Below, in pieces: positions 20,070 through 43,344 of a stretch of DNA of 64,000 nt. The translations under genes were made by a program, and so were the position numbers. Every line of letters starts with the position of its first letter. Position 1 is the stretch's first letter. The notes under the pieces were generated by a model. The model saw nothing but the letters and a program-made list of their open reading frames with translations, had not been told where the DNA came from and did not search any database. The stretch comes from Escherichia coli (GTDB taxonomy: Bacteria > Pseudomonadota > Gammaproteobacteria > Enterobacterales > Enterobacteriaceae): assembly GCF_030013205.1 (NCBI RefSeq), contig NZ_CP122648.1; one strand, 5' to 3'.

Positions 20070-20587
20070 ATGTCTGACCGCGCCACTACCACAGCTTCCT
20101 TAACGTTCGAGTCGCTTTATGGCACACATCACGGCTGGTTGAAAAGCTGGCTGACGCGCAAACTCCAGTCTGCTTTTGATGCAGATGACATTGCCCAGGA
20201 CACTTTTTTGCGGGTAATGGTCAGCGAAACGCTCTCGACGATCCGCGATCCTCGCTCCTTCCTCTGCACTATCGCCAAACGCGTGATGGTGGACCTGTTT
20301 CGCCGAAACGCGCTGGAAAAAGCGTATCTGGAGATGCTGGCGCTTATGCCGGAGGGGGGAGCGTCTTCACCTGAGGAACGCGAAAGCCAACTCGAGACCC
20401 TACAACTCCTCGACAGCATGCTGGACGGGCTAAACGGCAAAACACGTGAAGCGTTTCTGCTTTCGCAACTGGATGGTCTGACATACAGCGAGATTGCGCA
20501 CAAACTCGGTGTTTCCATCAGCTCCGTGAAAAAATACGTGGCGAAAGCCGTCGAGCACTGCCTGCTGTTCCGTCTGGAGTATGGGTT

Positions 20588-20591
<4 letters not shown>
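20070..20591 (+). CDS. fecI: FecI ECF sigma factor (173 aa)
   Basis: [52 protein letters not shown]... Confidence 0.95.
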
Positions 20592-23952
<3,361 letters not shown>

Positions 23953-23960
23953 TGTGTTAA

Positions 23961-23982
23961 CGCCCGGCTTGCCGGGCTTTTA
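23961..23982 (+). terminator. Hairpin between fecA and fecB (CCCGGCTTGCCGGG followed by T-rich run), partial terminator/attenuator
   Basis: Inverted repeat at 23963-23976 directly after the fecA stop. Confidence 0.45.
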
Positions 23983-23996
23983 GCTGGAATGTGATT

Positions 23997-34744: not shown

Positions 34745-35590
34745 TTATTCATTTAAAGATTCAAGAAATGTCCAGCCTTTATGAGTAACATAATACATTT
34801 GTCCTTTTGCCCCTCTTTCAATCACAAAATCAAAGGATAACAGTTCGTTAAGTGCGCCCTCCCAACGGGCTACCTCTCTAGCCGAACTTCCACCAAAGGA
34901 TTGATTTCCCGCTTGAATATCCGTGCCACCTAAATGCCTTATCACATAAATTGTTCCGCTATCATCGACACATGCTAATTTCAGCAAACTGAGTGCATCG
35001 GCGGACAAATTACTTTCTGGCAAAGATTGACTTGTATTCGCATCAGGAGAATTGTTAATGGTAGATATAAGAGAAGACAAATAAGGGCTACTAGAAATAA
35101 TTATCGAAAGTTGCCTACGGACTTTTTCTTTGAAATCAGATAAGTCATTAAAAGACTCTATCAATCCCTTTTGCATGCACTCAGTTTTGAACAATTTAAG
35201 AGACTCATATTGTTCTCTATCAAGGCTTTCAGGGGCAACAGGCTTTGAGGAAAAGTAAATCATTGCCGGTTTTCCCGCATTCAAATGACGGTGGATTTCT
35301 TCGACTGTTCCGCTGGCCTCGTTCCCAGTCGGTGAGCCTAGACGAGTCCAAAACACACCGATTAATAAATCACAATCTACTAATAATCTTTGATTAATCA
35401 ACTCCTGAGGCCTAACTCCTAATTCGGGTGATGTATGAGTTTCCCATCCAATTGGTGTCAACATTACTTTTGAACGAGCTGAATTTATATCATTCCACTC
35501 ATGGATCATTTCACGAATGACTTGTCTCTCTTCAGCGACATCACCAGGAGAAGCAATCATTACAGGGATAACAGTTGCTGTGTAAGCCAT
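34745..35590 (-). CDS. Two-domain hypothetical protein (281 aa) with DUF4062-like N-terminal domain
   Basis: N-terminus VIPVMIASPGDVAEERQVIREMI...VDCDLLIGVFWTRLGSPTGNEASGTVEEIHRHLNAGKPAMIYFSS matches the DUF4062 pattern (S..D..EER ... CD..I.....R.G ... SGT..E ... GKP); C-terminal ~120 aa unassigned; start 13 nt after recombinase stop. Confidence 0.65.
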   Translation of the reverse strand: MAYTATVIPVMIASPGDVAEERQVIREMIHEWNDINSARSKVMLTPIGWETHTSPELGVRPQELINQRLLVDCDLLIGVFWTRLGSPTGNEASGTVEEIHRHLNAGKPAMIYFSSKPVAPESLDREQYESLKLFKTECMQKGLIESFNDLSDFKEKVRRQLSIIISSSPYLSSLISTINNSPDANTSQSLPESNLSADALSLLKLACVDDSGTIYVIRHLGGTDIQAGNQSFGGSSAREVARWEGALNELLSFDFVIERGAKGQMYYVTHKGWTFLESLNE

Positions 35591-35603
35591 AAACTCTCCA
35601 TAT

Positions 35604-36164
35604 TCAATCGGTAATAGCTGCTACAGTCGCTCTTGAAACGCCATATTGACGCGCTAACGCACTGATACTCAAACCGCTATTCTTTTTCTCTAAAATCTCT
35701 CTACGGGCTTCTGACGCGATTTTAGGAGGTCTGCCCAATTTCTTACCTTCGGCTTTTGCTCGTGATAGTCCCGCCTGAGTGCGCTCAATCAGCAGATCAC
35801 GCTCCATCTCCGCAACCGCGGCGAGCATAGATAATAGCAACTTCCCAGCGGCAGAAGTGAGATCTGTGTTACCAAGCTGGTGGACAAGAACCTTGATATT
35901 ACGGTCAGCCAGCGCCCTTACCGTTTGCAAGACGTCAATCGCATCACGCCCCAGACGATCAAGCTTCGCTACCACCAACGTTTCACCATCGCGGATTTTA
36001 TTGAGCATTTCAGAAAATGCTTTACGTTGCATTGCCGGAACCTTCCCGCTAACAACATCGGCAAACCAGTAATCAATTTGCCACCCAGCCTGCCCAAGCT
36101 CCAGCCGTTGGTTCTCAGTATCCTGCTGCGATGTCGAAACACGTCCGTAGCCAAAAGTTGCCAT
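35604..36164 (-). CDS. Small serine recombinase, resolvase/invertase family (186 aa)
   Basis: ATG at 36164 with SD GGAG; MATFGYGRVSTSQQDTENQ... (catalytic Ser region), ...VAKLDRLGRD..., C-terminal HTH LSISALARQYGVSRATV. Confidence 0.85.
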   Translation of the reverse strand: MATFGYGRVSTSQQDTENQRLELGQAGWQIDYWFADVVSGKVPAMQRKAFSEMLNKIRDGETLVVAKLDRLGRDAIDVLQTVRALADRNIKVLVHQLGNTDLTSAAGKLLLSMLAAVAEMERDLLIERTQAGLSRAKAEGKKLGRPPKIASEARREILEKKNSGLSISALARQYGVSRATVAAITD

Positions 36165-36186
36165 TGTTATCTCCCCATCTGACCCC

Positions 36187-36284
36187 TGCCAGAAAACGAG
36201 GCCAACATTAGGATGGCCTGCCAGAAAAGCCAAGGCTATTTTTCCAACAGTGTGAAAGCGTGCGATTGGGAGGTGCCAGAAAAC
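36187..36284. repeat. Three direct copies of TGCCAGAAAA(C/G) upstream of the recombinase gene (candidate res-like site / iterons)
   Basis: Copies at 36187-36197, 36219-36229 and 36274-36284, 23-120 bp upstream of the recombinase start. Confidence 0.5.
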
Positions 36285-36356
36285 GGTCGTTTGTTGGCGC
36301 TTAAAACGGATAAAGACATGTTAGGCTGAAACCATCACTTCATAAGGACAACCGAA

Positions 36357-36823
36357 ATGATTAAAGACGCGATTTTTCACCGTGCGGTCAATATCGCTAC
36401 TCGTTATCACGAGTCTGGGACGAATCAAAACCATATGCCCTTTTCATAGGGCTAAACCCTTCATACGCCGATGCTGAGAAGGATGATCGCACCTTGAGCC
36501 GCTGCATATCGTTTGCCAAAAGCAGGGGCTACGGTGGCGTATACATGGCCAACCTGTTCGCATTCGTTCACACCCAGCGACATGAAATGATGAAAGCGTC
36601 TGATCCCATTGGCAAAGATAACGATAGCCACTTGATACGTCTTGTTAGCGGTGCCGGACTGGTTGTCGCCGCATGGGGAAATGAAGGAAGACACCTCAAA
36701 CGCTCAACGACCGTCCGACAGCTATTGCCAGAGAGCACAATGTGCTTCGTCTTAAACGCTACAGGTGAGCCGAAGCACCCTTTGTATATGAAAAACGACA
36801 GTGTTCTCATACCTTTAGGTTAA
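36357..36823 (+). pseudogene. DUF1643-family gene disrupted by a +1 frameshift in a T5 run
   Basis: ATG at 36357 reads MIKDAIFHRAVN... to a stop after 30 codons; the -1 frame continues ...SPCGQYRYSLSRVWDESKPYALFIGLNPSYADAEKDDRTLSRCISFAKSRGYGGVYMANLFAF... (DUF1643 hallmark); frames join if one T of 36373-36377 is removed. Confidence 0.65.
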
Positions 36824-36832
36824 CATCGATAA

Positions 36833-36855
36833 CTGCGTTCAGAATATGAACGCAG
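36833..36855. terminator. Perfect 9-bp-stem palindrome CTGCGTTCA-GAATA-TGAACGCAG after the DUF1643 gene (terminator or operator)
   Basis: Inverted repeat directly downstream of the stop at 36823. Confidence 0.4.
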
Positions 36856-37828
36856 CCATATGATATATATGACTTTTCTTTAAAATGATGGTGTGCTAGC
36901 TTCTCTCCTGACACCTACCTCATGCGGTAAACCGGTCCGGGTAGGTGGAGATCACCGCTGTTTAGCGGAAGACGTCAGGATGGGAACTCTGCGTAACGTT
37001 GATTGTGGTAGGTAGGGCGCGCAAGCGTTTGATGCAGCCAAGCAGAGGGTGAAAGTAGCTATCGGCGGATTCTTGAGTAGCTTCTTTTGCGCATAATGCA
37101 TCTTTCAAGAAAGGTCGTCACACCACGAGGAAGACTTGATCTTCATCTGGCAAGGGGAACCGAGCAACCTACAGGCTATCTTCTCAGATGGCCTTATGGT
37201 TGATATGTCCGGCTTCCCCCCCGAGGAAGGGTTTACATCTTAAAGAACAAGTTATGTTTTAACATTTTTAACAATTACACTTCTCTGCTGTTTGGTGTCT
37301 TATGGCGTTGCCGTCAAAAGTAAACCTGCCGTTTTTACCTCTCCTGCGTAACAACCAAATACGAACCAGAAGCTGCTAACGTTCAACGTGTTCGCGGTGT
37401 AAATGCAGCCAGATAAGTTGGGAGCGAAAAAGTGGATGCCCTAGGTTTGGAAGCGCCCCTCTCAGGCATAGCGTCCGAAAATTTCCACGGCGGCAGGCTT
37501 ATCCTTATAGAGCCAAACAGACTCAAAAGTTAAGAAGCGCGGTAAAGCTTAAAGCTCGCCCAGATTTCTCATTGATTGCTCGAACTCCGCTACGCTTGTT
37601 TCAACTGGCTTCGCCAGTCACTCTATGAGAGCGCCGCGAATTCTGCACCATGATTTCGACTACCTTCTTTAAAACACTCGCCAGAGAGCCTTACAGCGCG
37701 TTTGAACCGCATATCGCAGCTTTTGCTTACGGATGACTGTCTGATTAGCAGTAGCTTCATGGCCCAGTCCGGTTTACTTTATTGCTATCAACAAGGGAGC
37801 CGTCCAGAGGCGACGCGGAGATAATGCT

Positions 37829-38161
37829 TTGAGAACCGTCGAGATACTGCAATACACCTTACGCAAAGGCAGCGGTGCCGCTTTTCACGCCATTATGCAG
37901 GAAATCAGTGTTCCCCTACACCAACGCCACGGGATCGATGTTGTTTCGTTTGGTAACTCTCTGCATGACCCGGACTGCTATTACCTGATTCGCGCCTTTG
38001 TCAGCCCTAAAAGCATGACTACGGTTCTCGACGCTTTTTACGCAAGCGATGACTGGCGCAGCGGCCCGCGCGAAGACATCATTGGCAACATAGAGGCCAG
38101 CATTAAAACAGTGATAAATCTACCATCAGAAAGCGTAGAAGGGCTGCGGGTGCAATCGTAG
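37829..38161 (+). CDS. NIPSNAP/Dabb-like small protein (110 aa, TTG start inferred)
   Basis: ...VEILQYTLRKGSGAAFHAIMQEISVPLHQRHGIDVVSFGNSLHDPDCYYLIRAFVS... resembles NIPSNAP-type ~100-aa proteins; no in-frame ATG upstream. Confidence 0.45.
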   Translation: MRTVEILQYTLRKGSGAAFHAIMQEISVPLHQRHGIDVVSFGNSLHDPDCYYLIRAFVSPKSMTTVLDAFYASDDWRSGPREDIIGNIEASIKTVINLPSESVEGLRVQS

Positions 38162-38293
38162 GTCATCAAGTTTCACCAAACGTGTTTTGAGCGTCTCCAA
38201 ATTCAGCACTATGAAATCCACCACCCTTAATAAAAAACGCGCCAGGAAGCGTCCCAGCGCATTCAAGCATCACTCAACTGAATAGTAACTGAT

Positions 38294-40204
38294 TCAACCT
38301 GTTTGTTTGCCACGCTTTCTTCGCAACGCATCTCTGACAGCATCCAGCCCGTCAGGAATGTTGAATTCCGCTATATCAGGTAACGAAAAATCAATTTTCT
38401 CCACGACTTCAATCATATGAATTGGTTTGAGGTCTTTGCTATATCGCACTTCCGTTTCAGTTTCGCCGCGCACATGCCCAAGTAGCTGCGCTCGTAATTC
38501 TGAGCTAACGCCCTTCTCCTTGAGCAAAGTCGAAACTGAGTGGCGAAAAGAATGGAAAGATTTGCTTCTGTTCCTCTCGAGTTTCAACCGCCCCGCAAGC
38601 AACGATTCATTGAACCATGCGGAAACTGGCCTACCATAGCCTTTTGTTTTATGTGGTTTAAGCTCCGGGAAGAGACGGGTATACCCTGCATCTTTTAAGG
38701 CGTTCACGTAGTCGATGAAACCGAGACTAATCAGCTTTGAATGGAGCGGAATCTTGCGGCGAGCATTAGCATTTTTGAGTTTCTTTCCGCTTTCATTATC
38801 GCTTTCAAGGTTCAAATAATAGACGCCGTCGTCTGCCAGAACATCACTCAGCAGTAACTGAGCGATTTCATTAACTCGCGCCCCCGTCATCAAGCCCAGC
38901 AAAGGTGCCCAATAGTTAAACGGGCAATATTGATGGAATCGCCCTTGCGCATTGCGTTCAACAGTTCCAGCCTCAAACCACGGTAACGAAAAAATCGCTT
39001 TAATTTCATGCGGTTCAAATATGTCAGTGTGATCCTGATCTCGCTCATCTTTATCATCGGATGGAAAAAAGTTTTCGCATGGCGATTTCAGTAGCTTACC
39101 GTCAGCAACAGCCCACTTCATTGCACCATAAATGCCGTTGATATACTTCCTAACGGATTCCTCAGTCATCAATTTATCGCCGCATTCTGCCGCTTTGGCG
39201 ATTAACTGATCCAGCGTTTTCACTCCATATTTAGCTTTGACTAAATTACGGTTTGCTGGGATCGTGCGCAGTTTGCTCTCATAAGCCCGGAGGAAATCGC
39301 GATCAAAATCTTCCAACTGAATGTCACCCATCGCTTCGATCATAAAGCTGAAATAGTTACGGATATCACTTATAGCCGACTCCGATACCTTGCCCTTGCG
39401 CCGATGCTTTAGATATTCAGAGCATAACCACGACAGATTCTTAGTGTAATACTTTCGATTAACATACTCGTTATCGATAGTAGGGGCAGGAGCGGCAAGA
39501 GGCACGGTAGGATGAACACTAGCGACTGGAGGCGTGGTCTTAGCCAGCCAATCAAGCCTTAGGCTTTCTGCATGGACTTTATTGATCAAAAGCGTATCGG
39601 GTTTAATTACCGGCCAACCGGAGGTGAAAAACCAACCGCCTTTAGCGTCGCTTCCGGCAGTTTTGAACACCGAAGCTTCTGAATAACCGTCGCTAATAAT
39701 GTTACGTAAATGTGCTGGTTGCGCAGTGAGTTGCAGATAGCCTTTAGCAACCCCCTCGATACCCTTCTCTTCGCCATAATTAAGAACGTAACTGCCATCA
39801 AGCGGGTCTAGCTCAGCCTCAGAGAGCGCTGCAACATAAAAGCCAGCCTGCCCCGTCGCCAGCCAGAATACGGGCAGATTACGGTTCATCACCGCCTGTA
39901 TTAATTGCGCAACAGGCAACTCAACTGACTGAGCAAAGTTAGAAAGCGAGATCATACCCTCACCAGCAAGCAGCGGGGCGCAGTCACTTAAAGTTCGATA
40001 ATCCAATTGTTCATACTCTTGTAAGGTCTGATACCAGACCGCCAACAGGAGCGCGGACTTCTGCTTTGCTTCATGAAGATCGTGAGTGCCTGTTGAAGTG
40101 TGAATCTCACACTGTCCTGCGTATCGACGAAAACGTTGGGGAATGCTAATGCGGACAACATAAATGCCGCTGGTTCGACGATAGAGTTTATATCGCTGAG
40201 ACAT
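38294..40204 (-). CDS. Large tyrosine recombinase / integrase (636 aa from first ATG; 650 aa from TTG at 40246)
   Basis: C-terminal catalytic region ...GARVNEIAQLLLSDV...HSFRHSVSTLL...LLGH...EVRYSKD (R, H-x-x-R, H, Y); start adjacent to the 3' end of tRNA-Leu, same orientation. Confidence 0.85.
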   Translation of the reverse strand: MSQRYKLYRRTSGIYVVRISIPQRFRRYAGQCEIHTSTGTHDLHEAKQKSALLLAVWYQTLQEYEQLDYRTLSDCAPLLAGEGMISLSNFAQSVELPVAQLIQAVMNRNLPVFWLATGQAGFYVAALSEAELDPLDGSYVLNYGEEKGIEGVAKGYLQLTAQPAHLRNIISDGYSEASVFKTAGSDAKGGWFFTSGWPVIKPDTLLINKVHAESLRLDWLAKTTPPVASVHPTVPLAAPAPTIDNEYVNRKYYTKNLSWLCSEYLKHRRKGKVSESAISDIRNYFSFMIEAMGDIQLEDFDRDFLRAYESKLRTIPANRNLVKAKYGVKTLDQLIAKAAECGDKLMTEESVRKYINGIYGAMKWAVADGKLLKSPCENFFPSDDKDERDQDHTDIFEPHEIKAIFSLPWFEAGTVERNAQGRFHQYCPFNYWAPLLGLMTGARVNEIAQLLLSDVLADDGVYYLNLESDNESGKKLKNANARRKIPLHSKLISLGFIDYVNALKDAGYTRLFPELKPHKTKGYGRPVSAWFNESLLAGRLKLERNRSKSFHSFRHSVSTLLKEKGVSSELRAQLLGHVRGETETEVRYSKDLKPIHMIEVVEKIDFSLPDIAEFNIPDGLDAVRDALRRKRGKQTG

Positions 40205-40294
40205 CGCCTCGTATACCCTTTTGTAAGAGGGGCTACGCGATTTCAAGCAAAATTATGGATTAAATTGTTTTAAAACAACGACTTAGATAAGACT

Positions 40295-40379
40295 TGGTGC
40301 CGAAGGCCGGACTCGAACCGGCACGTATTTCTACGGTTGATTTTGAATCAACTGCGTCTACCGATTTCGCCACTTCGGC
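40295..40379 (-). tRNA. leuX: tRNA-Leu (CAA anticodon), leuX
   Basis: Reverse complement reads GCCGAAGTGGCGAAATCGGTAGACGCAGTTGATTCAAAATCAACCGTAGAAATACGTGCCGGTTCGAGTCCGGCCTTCGGCACCA with long variable arm and CCA end. Confidence 0.95.
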
Positions 40380-40574
40380 ACTGAAGAGGTATGCGGAAAA
40401 CGTTGTGGATTATACCTGTCGCACGCCACCATGCAAGCGCCAGCTTGCACCCACCTCGCTAAGTGCTGAAATTTTCAGCATTACACTCAGCGATATGTAA
40501 CCTTTGTCACACTCCAGGCACCCCGCCCTGCCATGCTCTACACTTCCCAAACAACACCAGAGAAGGACCCAAAA

Positions 40575-41594
40575 ATGTCGATGATAAAAAGCTATGCCGC
40601 AAAAGAAGCGGGCGGCGAACTGGAAGTTTATGAGTACGATCCCGGTGAGCTGAAGCCACAAGATGTTGAAGTGCAGGTGGATTACTGCGGGATTTGTCAT
40701 TCCGATCTGTCGATGATCGATAACGAATGGGGATTTTCACAATATCCGCTGGTTGCCGGGCATGAGGTGATTGGGCGCGTGGTGGCACTCGGGAGCGCCG
40801 CGCAGGATAAAGGTTTGCAGGTCGGTCAGCGTGTCGGGATTGGCTGGACGGCGCGTAGCTGTGGTCACTGCGACACCTGTATTAGCGGTAATCAGATCAA
40901 CTGCGAGCAAGGTGCGGTGCCGACGATTATGAATCGCGGTGGCTTTGCCGAGAAGTTGCGTGCGGACTGGCAATGGGTGATTCCACTGCCAGAAAATATT
41001 GATATCGAGTCCGCCGGGCCGCTGTTGTGCGGCGGTATCACGGTCTTTAAACCACTGTTGATGCACCATATCACTGCTACCAGCCGCGTTGGGGTAATTG
41101 GTATTGGCGGGCTGGGGCATATCGCTATAAAACTTCTGCACGCAATGGGATGCGAGGTGACGGCCTTTAGTTCTAATCCGGCGAAAGAGCAGGAAGTACT
41201 GGCGATGGGTACCGATAAAGTGGTGAATAGCCGCGATCCGCAGGCACTGAAAGCCCTGTCGGGGCAGTTTGATCTCATTATCAATACTGTGAACGTCAGC
41301 CTCGACTGGCAGCCTTATTTTGAGGCGCTGACCTATGGCGGTAATTTCCATACGGTCGGTGCGGTTCTCACGCCGCTGTCTGTTCCGGCCTTTACGTTAA
41401 TTGCGGGCGACCGCAGCATCTCTGGTTCTGCTACCGGCACGCCTTATGAGCTGCGTAAGCTGATGCGTTTTGCCGCCCGCAGCAAGGTTGCGCCGACCAC
41501 CGAACTGTTCCCGATGTCGAAAATTAACGACGCCATCCAGCATGTACGCGATGGTAAAGCGCGCTACCGCGTGGTCCTGAAAGCCGACTTCTGA
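40575..41594 (+). CDS. ahr: Ahr (YjgB) NADPH-dependent aldehyde reductase, Zn-dependent alcohol dehydrogenase family (339 aa)
   Basis: ATG at 40575: [53 protein letters not shown]...; GHEVIG and GIGGLGH motifs. Confidence 0.93.
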
Positions 41595-41723
41595 TCCCTT
41601 TGCCGGGAGCCTGTCGCCCGGCACTTAAATCTCTTTGGAAGGCGTCTCGCAATCTGCTGAATTTAGCGGTGAAGAGTGCACAGCCGTTGCCTATACTCCA
41701 GGCAGGAAACTGGAGGAAATCTC

Positions 41724-43226
41724 ATGAGCGAACCCCTGTTAATTGCCCGCACGCCGGACACAGAACTGTTTTTACTGCCGGGAATGGCTAACCGTCACGG
41801 GCTGATTACTGGCGCAACGGGGACGGGTAAAACTGTCACGCTGCAAAAACTGGCGGAGTCTCTATCGGAAATCGGCGTGCCGGTGTTTATGGCCGATGTG
41901 AAAGGCGATCTGACCGGTATCGCGCAGGCAGGAACGGCGTCGGAAAAACTGCTCGCAAGGCTTAAAAATATCGGCGTAAATGACTGGCAACCGCATGCTA
42001 ATCCGGTGGTGGTGTGGGATATCTTTGGCGAGAAAGGCCATCCGGTGCGGGCGACGGTTTCGGATCTGGGGCCGCTGTTGCTGGCGCGGCTGTTGAATCT
42101 CAACGATGTGCAATCTGGCGTGCTGAATATCATCTTCCGAATTGCTGACGATCAGGGGCTGTTACTGCTCGACTTTAAAGATCTGCGGGCGATTACCCAG
42201 TACATCGGCGATAACGCCAAATCTTTCCAGAATCAGTACGGAAATATCAGTAGCGCATCGGTTGGTGCCATCCAGCGCGGGCTGTTGTCGCTGGAACAGC
42301 AAGGCGCAGCACACTTCTTTGGTGAGCCGATGCTGGATATCAAAGACTTGATGCGCACCGATGCCAACGGTAAAGGCGTTATTAATATCCTCAGCGCCGA
42401 GAAGCTTTATCAGATGCCGAAACTGTACGCCGCCAGCCTGCTGTGGATGATTTCAGAGTTGTATGAACAATTGCCGGAAGCGGGCGATCTGGAGAAGCCA
42501 AAACTGGTGTTTTTCTTCGACGAAGCACATCTGCTGTTTAACGATGCACCGCAGGTACTGCTGGATAAGATTGAGCAGGTGATAAGGCTTATTCGCTCAA
42601 AAGGCGTGGGCGTCTGGTTCGTTTCGCAAAACCCGTCTGATATTCCGGATAATGTGCTCGGCCAGCTCGGTAATCGCGTTCAGCACGCTTTGCGGGCTTT
42701 TACGCCAAAAGATCAGAAAGCGGTAAAAGCTGCGGCGCAAACCATGCGGGCCAATCCGGCGTTTGATACCGAAAAGGCAATCCAGGAACTGGGGACCGGC
42801 GAGGCGTTAATCTCGTTTCTCGATGCAAAAGGAAGTCCTTCTGTGGTGGAACGGGCGATGGTGATTGCGCCTTGTTCGCGGATGGGACCGGTGACGGAAG
42901 ATGAGCGCAATGGCTTGATTAACCACTCCCCGGTGTATGGCAAGTACGAGGATGACGTGGACCGGGAATCCGCCTATGAGATGTTGCAAAAAGGCGTACA
43001 GGCGAGTATTGAACAGCAAAATAATCCTCCAGCGAAAGGGAAAGAGATAGCGGTAGATGACGGCATTCTTGGTGGATTGAAGGATATTTTGTTCGGCACT
43101 ACCGGACCACGCGGCGGGAAGAAAGATGGTGTGGTGCAGACAATGGCCAAAAGCGCCGCTCGCCAGGTGACGAATCAGATTGTACGCGGGATGTTGGGGA
43201 GTTTGCTGGGAGGGAGAAGAAGGTAA
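41724..43226 (+). CDS. yjgR: YjgR, DUF853 P-loop NTPase (500 aa)
   Basis: ATG at 41724: [43 protein letters not shown]... Confidence 0.9.
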
Positions 43227-43318
43227 GTCAGGCGCGATCTGTCCCCCTCACCCTAACCCTCTCCCCAAAGGGGCGAGGGGACCGATCGAACTCGTATTTG
43301 ACTTTATCAACAATGTGA

Positions 43319-43338
43319 AAGGGAGCTTTCGCTCCCTT
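43319..43338. terminator. Bidirectional terminator hairpin between yjgR and lptG (AAGGGAGC-TTTC-GCTCCCTT)
   Basis: Perfect 8-bp inverted repeat between convergent stops. Confidence 0.55.
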
Positions 43339-43344
43339 GCTTGG

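Follow-up and report, generated by a model that had tools for sequence, protein, structure and literature searches.

The question raised by this locus is whether an Escherichia coli chromosome in which ahr and yjgR stand side by side has lost the L-idonate operon that K-12 carries between these genes, or whether it holds a form of the site that was never interrupted. In the window, by which we mean the whole 64-kb stretch of DNA analyzed here, the ahr stop codon (TGA) lies at 41592 to 41594 and the yjgR ATG at 41724 to 41726, which leaves a spacer of 129 bp (41595 to 41723, plus strand), as the first-pass annotation had reported. The same annotation had placed idnK-idnDOTR between ahr and yjgR in K-12, in agreement with the gene order of MG1655 (yjgR-idnR-idnT-idnO-idnD-idnK-ahr-leuX), and had considered the operon absent from the junction in the window. 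This absence is upheld, as none of idnK, idnD, idnO, idnT, and idnR lies between ahr and yjgR in the window, and a tblastn search with the five K-12 Idn proteins returned no idn homologue within its 64 kb. Whether the operon had never been acquired or had been lost was left open by that annotation; the absence stands, and to it can be added that the evidence favors an intact, ancient empty allele over a deletion scar. We assign a probability of about 80% to the reading that the window carries an intact empty-site allele of a long-standing presence/absence polymorphism at ahr-yjgR and not the product of a local deletion.

The junction belongs to a conserved leuX-ahr-yjgR-lptGF block, the left edge of which is leuX, a tRNA-Leu(CAA) gene at 40295 to 40379 on the minus strand (ARAGORN; Rfam tRNA, 59.4 bits). 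RefSeq annotation of identical sequence assigns to ahr, on the plus strand, a 339-amino-acid NADPH-dependent aldehyde reductase at 40575 to 41594, the annotated start being the position equivalent to window 40575. The reading frame is open from 40533, and the ORF from 40533 to 41594 scores 550 bits, with a cutoff of 470, against the NCBIfam equivalog NF047908 ("NADPH-dependent aldehyde reductase Ahr"). Similarly, yjgR occupies 41724 to 43226 on the plus strand and encodes a 500-amino-acid HerA-like ATPase (DUF853) according to the annotation of identical sequence in RefSeq, where the ORF bears the yjgR (HerA-like/DUF853) label in all matching genomes; Pfam PF05872 (HerA_C) matches on YjgR homologues. 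The genes lptG, lptF, and pepA follow yjgR in the window in the same order as in K-12.

The surroundings of this block show variation of their own. For most of its length, the window runs nearly collinear with strain YZ_2_2, and an island lies to the left of leuX (20535 to 40246). This island includes a 650-amino-acid site-specific integrase (38294 to 40246, minus strand) that has no NCBIfam match, and it also contains, according to the YZ_2_2 annotation, a small recombinase, an AbiJ-like gene, IS fragments, and the ferric-citrate operon fecIRABCDE; a related integrase is found at the corresponding place left of leuX in O157:H7. On the other side of the block, a copy of IS1 (55434 to 56201, with InsA- and InsB-like ORFs at 55449 to 56146 on the minus strand) splits a large hypothetical gene into halves at 54701 to 55447 and 56197 to 56988. 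The otherwise near-identical YZ_2_2 has no IS1 there, and in that strain the gene is annotated as a frameshifted pseudogene. The spacer between yjgR and lptG (43227 to 43344) measures 118 nt here and in strain 2014C-4423 and 160 nt in K-12, O157:H7, and ST131, a difference that looks like the insertion of a variable repeat element.

Comparison with K-12 places the difference at the ahr-yjgR slot precisely. In BLAST alignments, the ahr stop codon is the exact point at which homology to K-12 breaks off, and it picks up again at 41685, with 39 nt left to the yjgR ATG, so that 90 bp in the window (41595 to 41684, plus strand) takes the place of 5,087 bp in K-12. The K-12 block consists of idnK and idnDOTR, with the idnK stop 3 nt from the ahr stop on the opposite strand; about the first 12 nt of the 90-bp segment is kept in K-12. 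This K-12 GntII, or L-idonate, locus, reportedly described by Bausch et al. in 1998, thus shares with the window its slot and the flanking genes ahr, yjgR, lptG, lptF, and pepA and differs from it by five genes that only K-12 carries. As the first-pass annotation had proposed, we aligned the junction against idn-positive strains, and no idn remnants were found: Smith-Waterman scores of the 90-bp segment against the idn cassette were 21 to 23, compared with a shuffle mean of 20.9 (standard deviation, 2.3), which is chance level and rules out the segment as a decayed piece of the cassette. A search for repeats around the junction likewise found only short ones at chance level. Having a contiguous ahr-spacer-yjgR arrangement together with the 90-bp segment confined to idn-negative alleles, the window represents the empty-site allele in complete form.

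The K-12 cassette itself has little in common with a mobile island. Its gene content is limited to the five idn genes, no integrase, transposase, or IS was found inside it, and no direct repeats were found at its ends. The left end abuts the ahr stop with no target-site duplication, and the string TCTCTTTGCCGG occurs on the right side only. The right-hand breakpoint is identical in the idn-positive loci of E. coli and Citrobacter.

When the two alleles are counted among 5,426 complete E. coli genomes, the state of the window turns out to be the common one. The 90-bp segment is present in 3,222 of these genomes at 90 to 100% identity, the contiguous 2,694-bp ahr-spacer-yjgR stretch in 3,212 in identical or near-identical form, and the idn cassette in 2,055 (38%), which by subtraction leaves about 149 with neither segment nor cassette. 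The empty junction is therefore the majority state in E. coli and K-12 represents the minority state, from which it follows that "absent relative to K-12" does not equate to "lost." Nissle 1917, O157:H7, and ST131 O25b:H4 are idn negative, and K-12, BL21, IHE3034, CFT073, and APEC O2:K1:H5 are idn positive. The spacer has a length of 129 bp in all five idn-negative E. coli sequences aligned. Nearly all carriers have the cassette at a single place (the maximum is two), and it never occurs on a plasmid. In K-12 and in all five other idn-positive E. coli strains inspected, it occupies the ahr-yjgR slot, and in 1,973 of the 2,055 carriers it is at least 99% identical to that of K-12.

A few genomes depart from this pattern. 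Strain MLI104K2 (NZ_CP116925.1, L003:9100-9886) was considered as an intermediate allele and rejected, as it is unique among the 5,426 genomes and its ahr-yjgR interval of about 930 bp is filled with long homopolymer runs (C, G, and T), with chimeric idnT/idnR fragments beside a spacer like that of the window and an annotated, spurious ORF of 180 amino acids. The interval is almost certainly a consensus or assembly artifact. In strain FCI56, a case related to the genomes with neither segment nor cassette, ahr is a truncated pseudogene and just 35 nt of the 90-bp segment remains. The segment also occurs on two plasmid records, and on plasmid NZ_CP172870.1 there is a 395-nt piece of ahr (94.5% identity); all of them have the look of captured chromosomal sequence. 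Finally, the annotation of the idn-positive strain Z0117EC0013 lists its yjgR (L099:8130-9632) as a pseudogene, with an internal stop.

The 129-bp spacer can be divided into several elements. Near its start, CTTTGCCGG (41598 to 41606, plus strand; TCTCTTTGCCGG in O157:H7-type alleles) is a string that idn-positive alleles also carry, 2 nt upstream of the point where their right-hand homology begins. It is followed, with overlap, by a hairpin just 3' of the ahr stop (41601 to 41623, plus strand), for which folding gives a 7-bp stem, a 9-nt loop, and -13.5 kcal/mol (z = -0.8). Stronger hairpins of other sequence stand at the corresponding place in E. albertii (z = -2.9) and Citrobacter werkmanii. 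The window hairpin has no T-run and was not called in a consensus terminator scan; it is a possible weak terminator of ahr. The spacer as a whole has no significant fold (z = -0.08), and an Rfam cmscan at E ≤ 1 over 39500 to 44500 identified the leuX tRNA only, with no known noncoding RNA in the spacer.

The remainder of the spacer is more strongly conserved. Over the 94 noncoding nucleotides from 41630 to 41723, there is a single difference from E. albertii, at identities of 90.0% for ahr and 88.8% for yjgR. The upstream part of this stretch (41630 to 41684, plus strand) is missing in idn-positive alleles, and its conservation in alignments suggests a yjgR upstream or regulatory region. The part that remains (41685 to 41723, plus strand) is common to all alleles in alignments of idn-negative, idn-positive, and dak-type loci, and it includes a -10-like TATACT (41692 to 41697, plus strand) and a GGAGG ribosome-binding site (41712 to 41716, plus strand). 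A promoter role for the spacer and its TATACT box may be proposed from these positions; a consensus scan of the spacer found no full sigma-70 promoter match. The idn-positive alleles lack the distal 45 to 75 nt of the conserved stretch at 41630 to 41723.

Additional insight is gained when the slot is followed into other species, for which about a dozen loci outside E. coli were compared, partly through look-ups of individual proteins. The slot is empty in E. albertii (129-bp spacer, 7 differences) and E. fergusonii (129-bp spacer, about 6 differences), and it is also empty, with a homologous but more diverged junction or spacer, in Escherichia sp. TW14182, C. werkmanii, and Citrobacter koseri. 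The presence of the spacer in these relatives indicates that it is older than E. coli. In TW14182 (L089:7516-8037 and L090:7515-8037), most of ahr has been deleted, leaving leuX-proximal sequence and the last approximately 45 codons, and the empty-site spacer and yjgR are kept despite this deletion.

Other loci have the slot occupied. Citrobacter sp. FP75 and Citrobacter amalonaticus carry idnK-idnDOTR between ahr and yjgR. At locus L094, idnK-idnDOTR is again in the slot, yjgR itself is missing, and idnR is directly followed by lptG; the IdnD of this locus represents a 90% cluster in which the named members, of 343 amino acids, are from Salmonella enterica. The idnR-lptG spacer of this Salmonella-type locus (L094:9340-9544) reads, by eye, like a remnant of the yjgR promoter followed by REP-like sequence and would retain a homologous junction sequence. 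In Enterobacter and Leclercia, the cargo of the slot is a single 548-amino-acid gene on the opposite strand, the product of which appears to be dihydroxyacetone kinase-like. This ahr-dak-yjgR arrangement resembles the idn loci in that the slot holds cargo and yjgR keeps the TATACT core on its upstream side, and differs from them in that the cargo is one gene of opposite orientation. The identical right-hand breakpoint of the cassette across E. coli and Citrobacter, together with the Salmonella-type junction, argues that both alleles are old and that each arose once.

Two signals bear on the direction of the change. Over the 60 nt upstream of TATACT, empty alleles agree in register at 26 of 60 positions with the sequence that precedes yjgR in Enterobacter cloacae, whereas out-of-register comparisons give 15 ± 3.3 with a maximum of 24 (z about 3.3); idn-positive alleles reach 9 to 13 of 60, which is chance level. 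In addition, idn-positive alleles carry just downstream of idnR, and separated by 2 nt from the segment common to all alleles, the string TCTCTTTGCCGG, which makes up the opening 12 nt of the spacer in O157-type alleles. A 12-nt match was not reached in any of 200,000 shuffles, and the 9-nt match of the window itself was reached in 123 of 200,000. Both polarity signals are modest, a z of about 3.3 in the one case and a single 12-nt match in the other, and they suggest, moderately and not conclusively, that the empty site may be the older form.

It can be hypothesized from these comparisons that the 129-bp spacer would be the original intergenic region, comprising the hairpin after ahr, the conserved segment upstream of yjgR, the -10-like box, and the ribosome-binding site, and that an idnK-idnDOTR cassette of about 5.07 kb was probably inserted directly after the ahr stop, ahead of the old spacer. 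In addition, 45 to 75 nt of the yjgR-proximal spacer would have disappeared from the idn-positive allele. Both alleles would then segregate in E. coli and Citrobacter, and they may pass between strains when the flanking genes recombine homologously. Between E. coli and Citrobacter or the Salmonella-type locus, the identity of Idn proteins is 80 to 96% and that of the flanking Ahr and YjgR proteins 91 to 94%; because the divergence of Idn is similar to that of its flanks, the insertion itself appears to be ancient. Similar divergence of Idn and flanks is also compatible with the view that the common ancestor of Escherichia, Citrobacter, and the Salmonella-type locus may have been idn positive.

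Within E. coli, the cassette and its flanks differ in diversity. Six idn-positive strains of different backgrounds have cassettes with a mean divergence of 0.78% (maximum, 1.28%), compared with 4.2% for ahr and 4.6% for yjgR in the same strains, so that the cassette is about five times less diverse than the flanking genes. As an example, K-12 and IHE3034 are 99.15% identical over the cassette, 95.5% over ahr, 95.3% over yjgR, and 97.2 to 98.5% over lptG, lptF, and pepA. A matrix of 13 sequences shows that ahr and yjgR are mosaic and not sorted by idn state. Two deeply diverged flanking haplotypes, one idn positive and one idn negative, had been hinted at near the junction by three strains, and this idea was discarded in view of the mosaic. 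Mean pairwise nucleotide divergence of the mosaic ahr and yjgR within E. coli is about 4 to 4.8% (maximum, 6 to 7%), and E. fergusonii ahr, at 93 to 96% identity to E. coli, is no more distant than E. coli alleles can be from one another, which suggests that recombination or introgression is frequent beside the leuX integration hot spot. Nissle 1917 is idn negative and CFT073 idn positive, and both strains belong to ST73. The low diversity of the cassette, the mosaic flanks, and the contrast between these two strains fit a movement of alleles by homologous recombination in the flanks.

Against this background, several other explanations of the junction can be weighed. A recent local deletion that removed idn from this strain or from its clone, with the 129-bp spacer as the scar, would suit the observation that K-12 and the related ST73 strain CFT073 carry idn here, and the 9- to 12-nt string that the first part of the spacer shares with the last part of the cassette-bearing region is of a kind that can mediate deletions. 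However, about 75 nt of the spacer is absent from idn-positive alleles and not derivable from them by deletion; a change from idn positive to idn negative is disfavored because the missing nucleotides would need to be created from nothing. The same spacer is moreover carried, with 94 to 100% identity, by the 3,222 E. coli genomes, by E. albertii, and by E. fergusonii, and in diverged form by TW14182 and two Citrobacter species; it shows no similarity to idn genes and nothing that marks it as a scar, and the sole apparent intermediate is the almost certain artifact in MLI104K2. We consider a deletion of this kind very unlikely. Still less credit is due to the suggestion that the direct ahr-yjgR junction is an artifact of assembly, which the first-pass annotation had named among the circumstances that could overturn its view: the same contiguous 2,694-bp stretch has been assembled in 3,212 of the 5,426 complete genomes by many laboratories, and misassembly can be dismissed for practical purposes.

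More room is left for a history in which the lineage was once idn positive and received the empty-site allele by homologous replacement through ahr and yjgR. The mosaic structure of both genes would accommodate such an import, and the window is the same as Nissle 1917 (ST73) at this locus and CFT073 (ST73) is idn positive, as expected of an exchange in one direction within a clonal group. But CFT073 could equally have gained the cassette, and we regard the import as a tentative possibility. A last alternative is that idn genes reside elsewhere in this genome. The window covers only 64 kb, and counts of 3,222 for the segment and 2,055 for the cassette do not alone prove that the two sets are disjoint. 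Such a location is nevertheless highly improbable, as nearly all carriers have a single cassette location, never on a plasmid, and this location is the ahr-yjgR slot in K-12 and the five strains inspected; as the two counts add to less than 5,426; and as Nissle 1917, identical across ahr-yjgR, has been reported to lack idnK-idnDOTR altogether (PMC7924626).

The preferred reading of an intact empty-site allele agrees with published precedents. The lack of idnK-idnDOTR in Nissle 1917, in comparison with K-12 and CFT073, has been presented in a figure, and the strain still grows on gluconate and 5-ketogluconate (PMC7924626). The five idn genes have appeared as variable accessory genes in pangenome association studies (PMC8545132; PMC4216125). 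Absence of idnK has been noted for ST131 strains of the H30 and H22 lineages in a study that states other gluconate genes, apparently including idnDOTR, to be present in ST131 JJ1886 (PMC5369007). The empty ahr-yjgR junction that we find in ST131 strain 751 conflicts with this statement on JJ1886, and from PMC5369007 we use the idnK result alone. The absence of idn at this junction is thus an already known and common state of E. coli. Only three points are mildly new here: the junction is conserved from one genus to another, the cassette is less diverse than the genes around it, and idn-positive alleles have lost a conserved element upstream of yjgR.

At the sequence level, the window and Nissle 1917 agree throughout leuX-ahr-spacer-yjgR (100% identity), and the Nissle record CP007799 differs farther out, with a yjgR-lptG spacer of 255 nt instead of 118 nt and a different island left of leuX. 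O157:H7 and ST131 O25b:H4 have the same 129-bp spacer with 2 to 4 substitutions. In the genome comparison of K-12 with O157:H7, strain-specific segments were termed K-islands and O-islands. The idn block is likewise present in K-12 and absent in O157:H7 within a collinear backbone, but it differs from such islands in having no integrase or IS, no target-site duplication, and an insertion common to several genera with a conserved junction. The idn cassette behaves like an old metabolic operon polymorphism and not like a recent mobile island.

A wider picture can be drawn from these observations, although we hold it as speculative: a polymorphism that extends across genera, with both alleles, each having a conserved junction of its own, maintained or exchanged in Escherichia and Citrobacter and the insertion also in Salmonella, in which a single low-diversity cassette has spread across E. 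coli phylogroups by recombination and yjgR has possibly been rewired in idn-positive strains. If this is correct, the cassette insertion, by removing a yjgR element of 45 to 75 nt, may change how yjgR is expressed, for example through read-through from idnR.

In conclusion, the uninterrupted site would leave this strain without L-idonate catabolism by GntII; growth on L-idonate is predicted to fail, and for gluconate the strain would rely on the main GntI system. The practical consequence is small. The locus is a clean textbook case of polymorphism within a species for an accessory metabolic operon, and the little-diverse cassette and the removed yjgR element are minor leads for population genetics and for the uncharacterized HerA-like ATPase YjgR.
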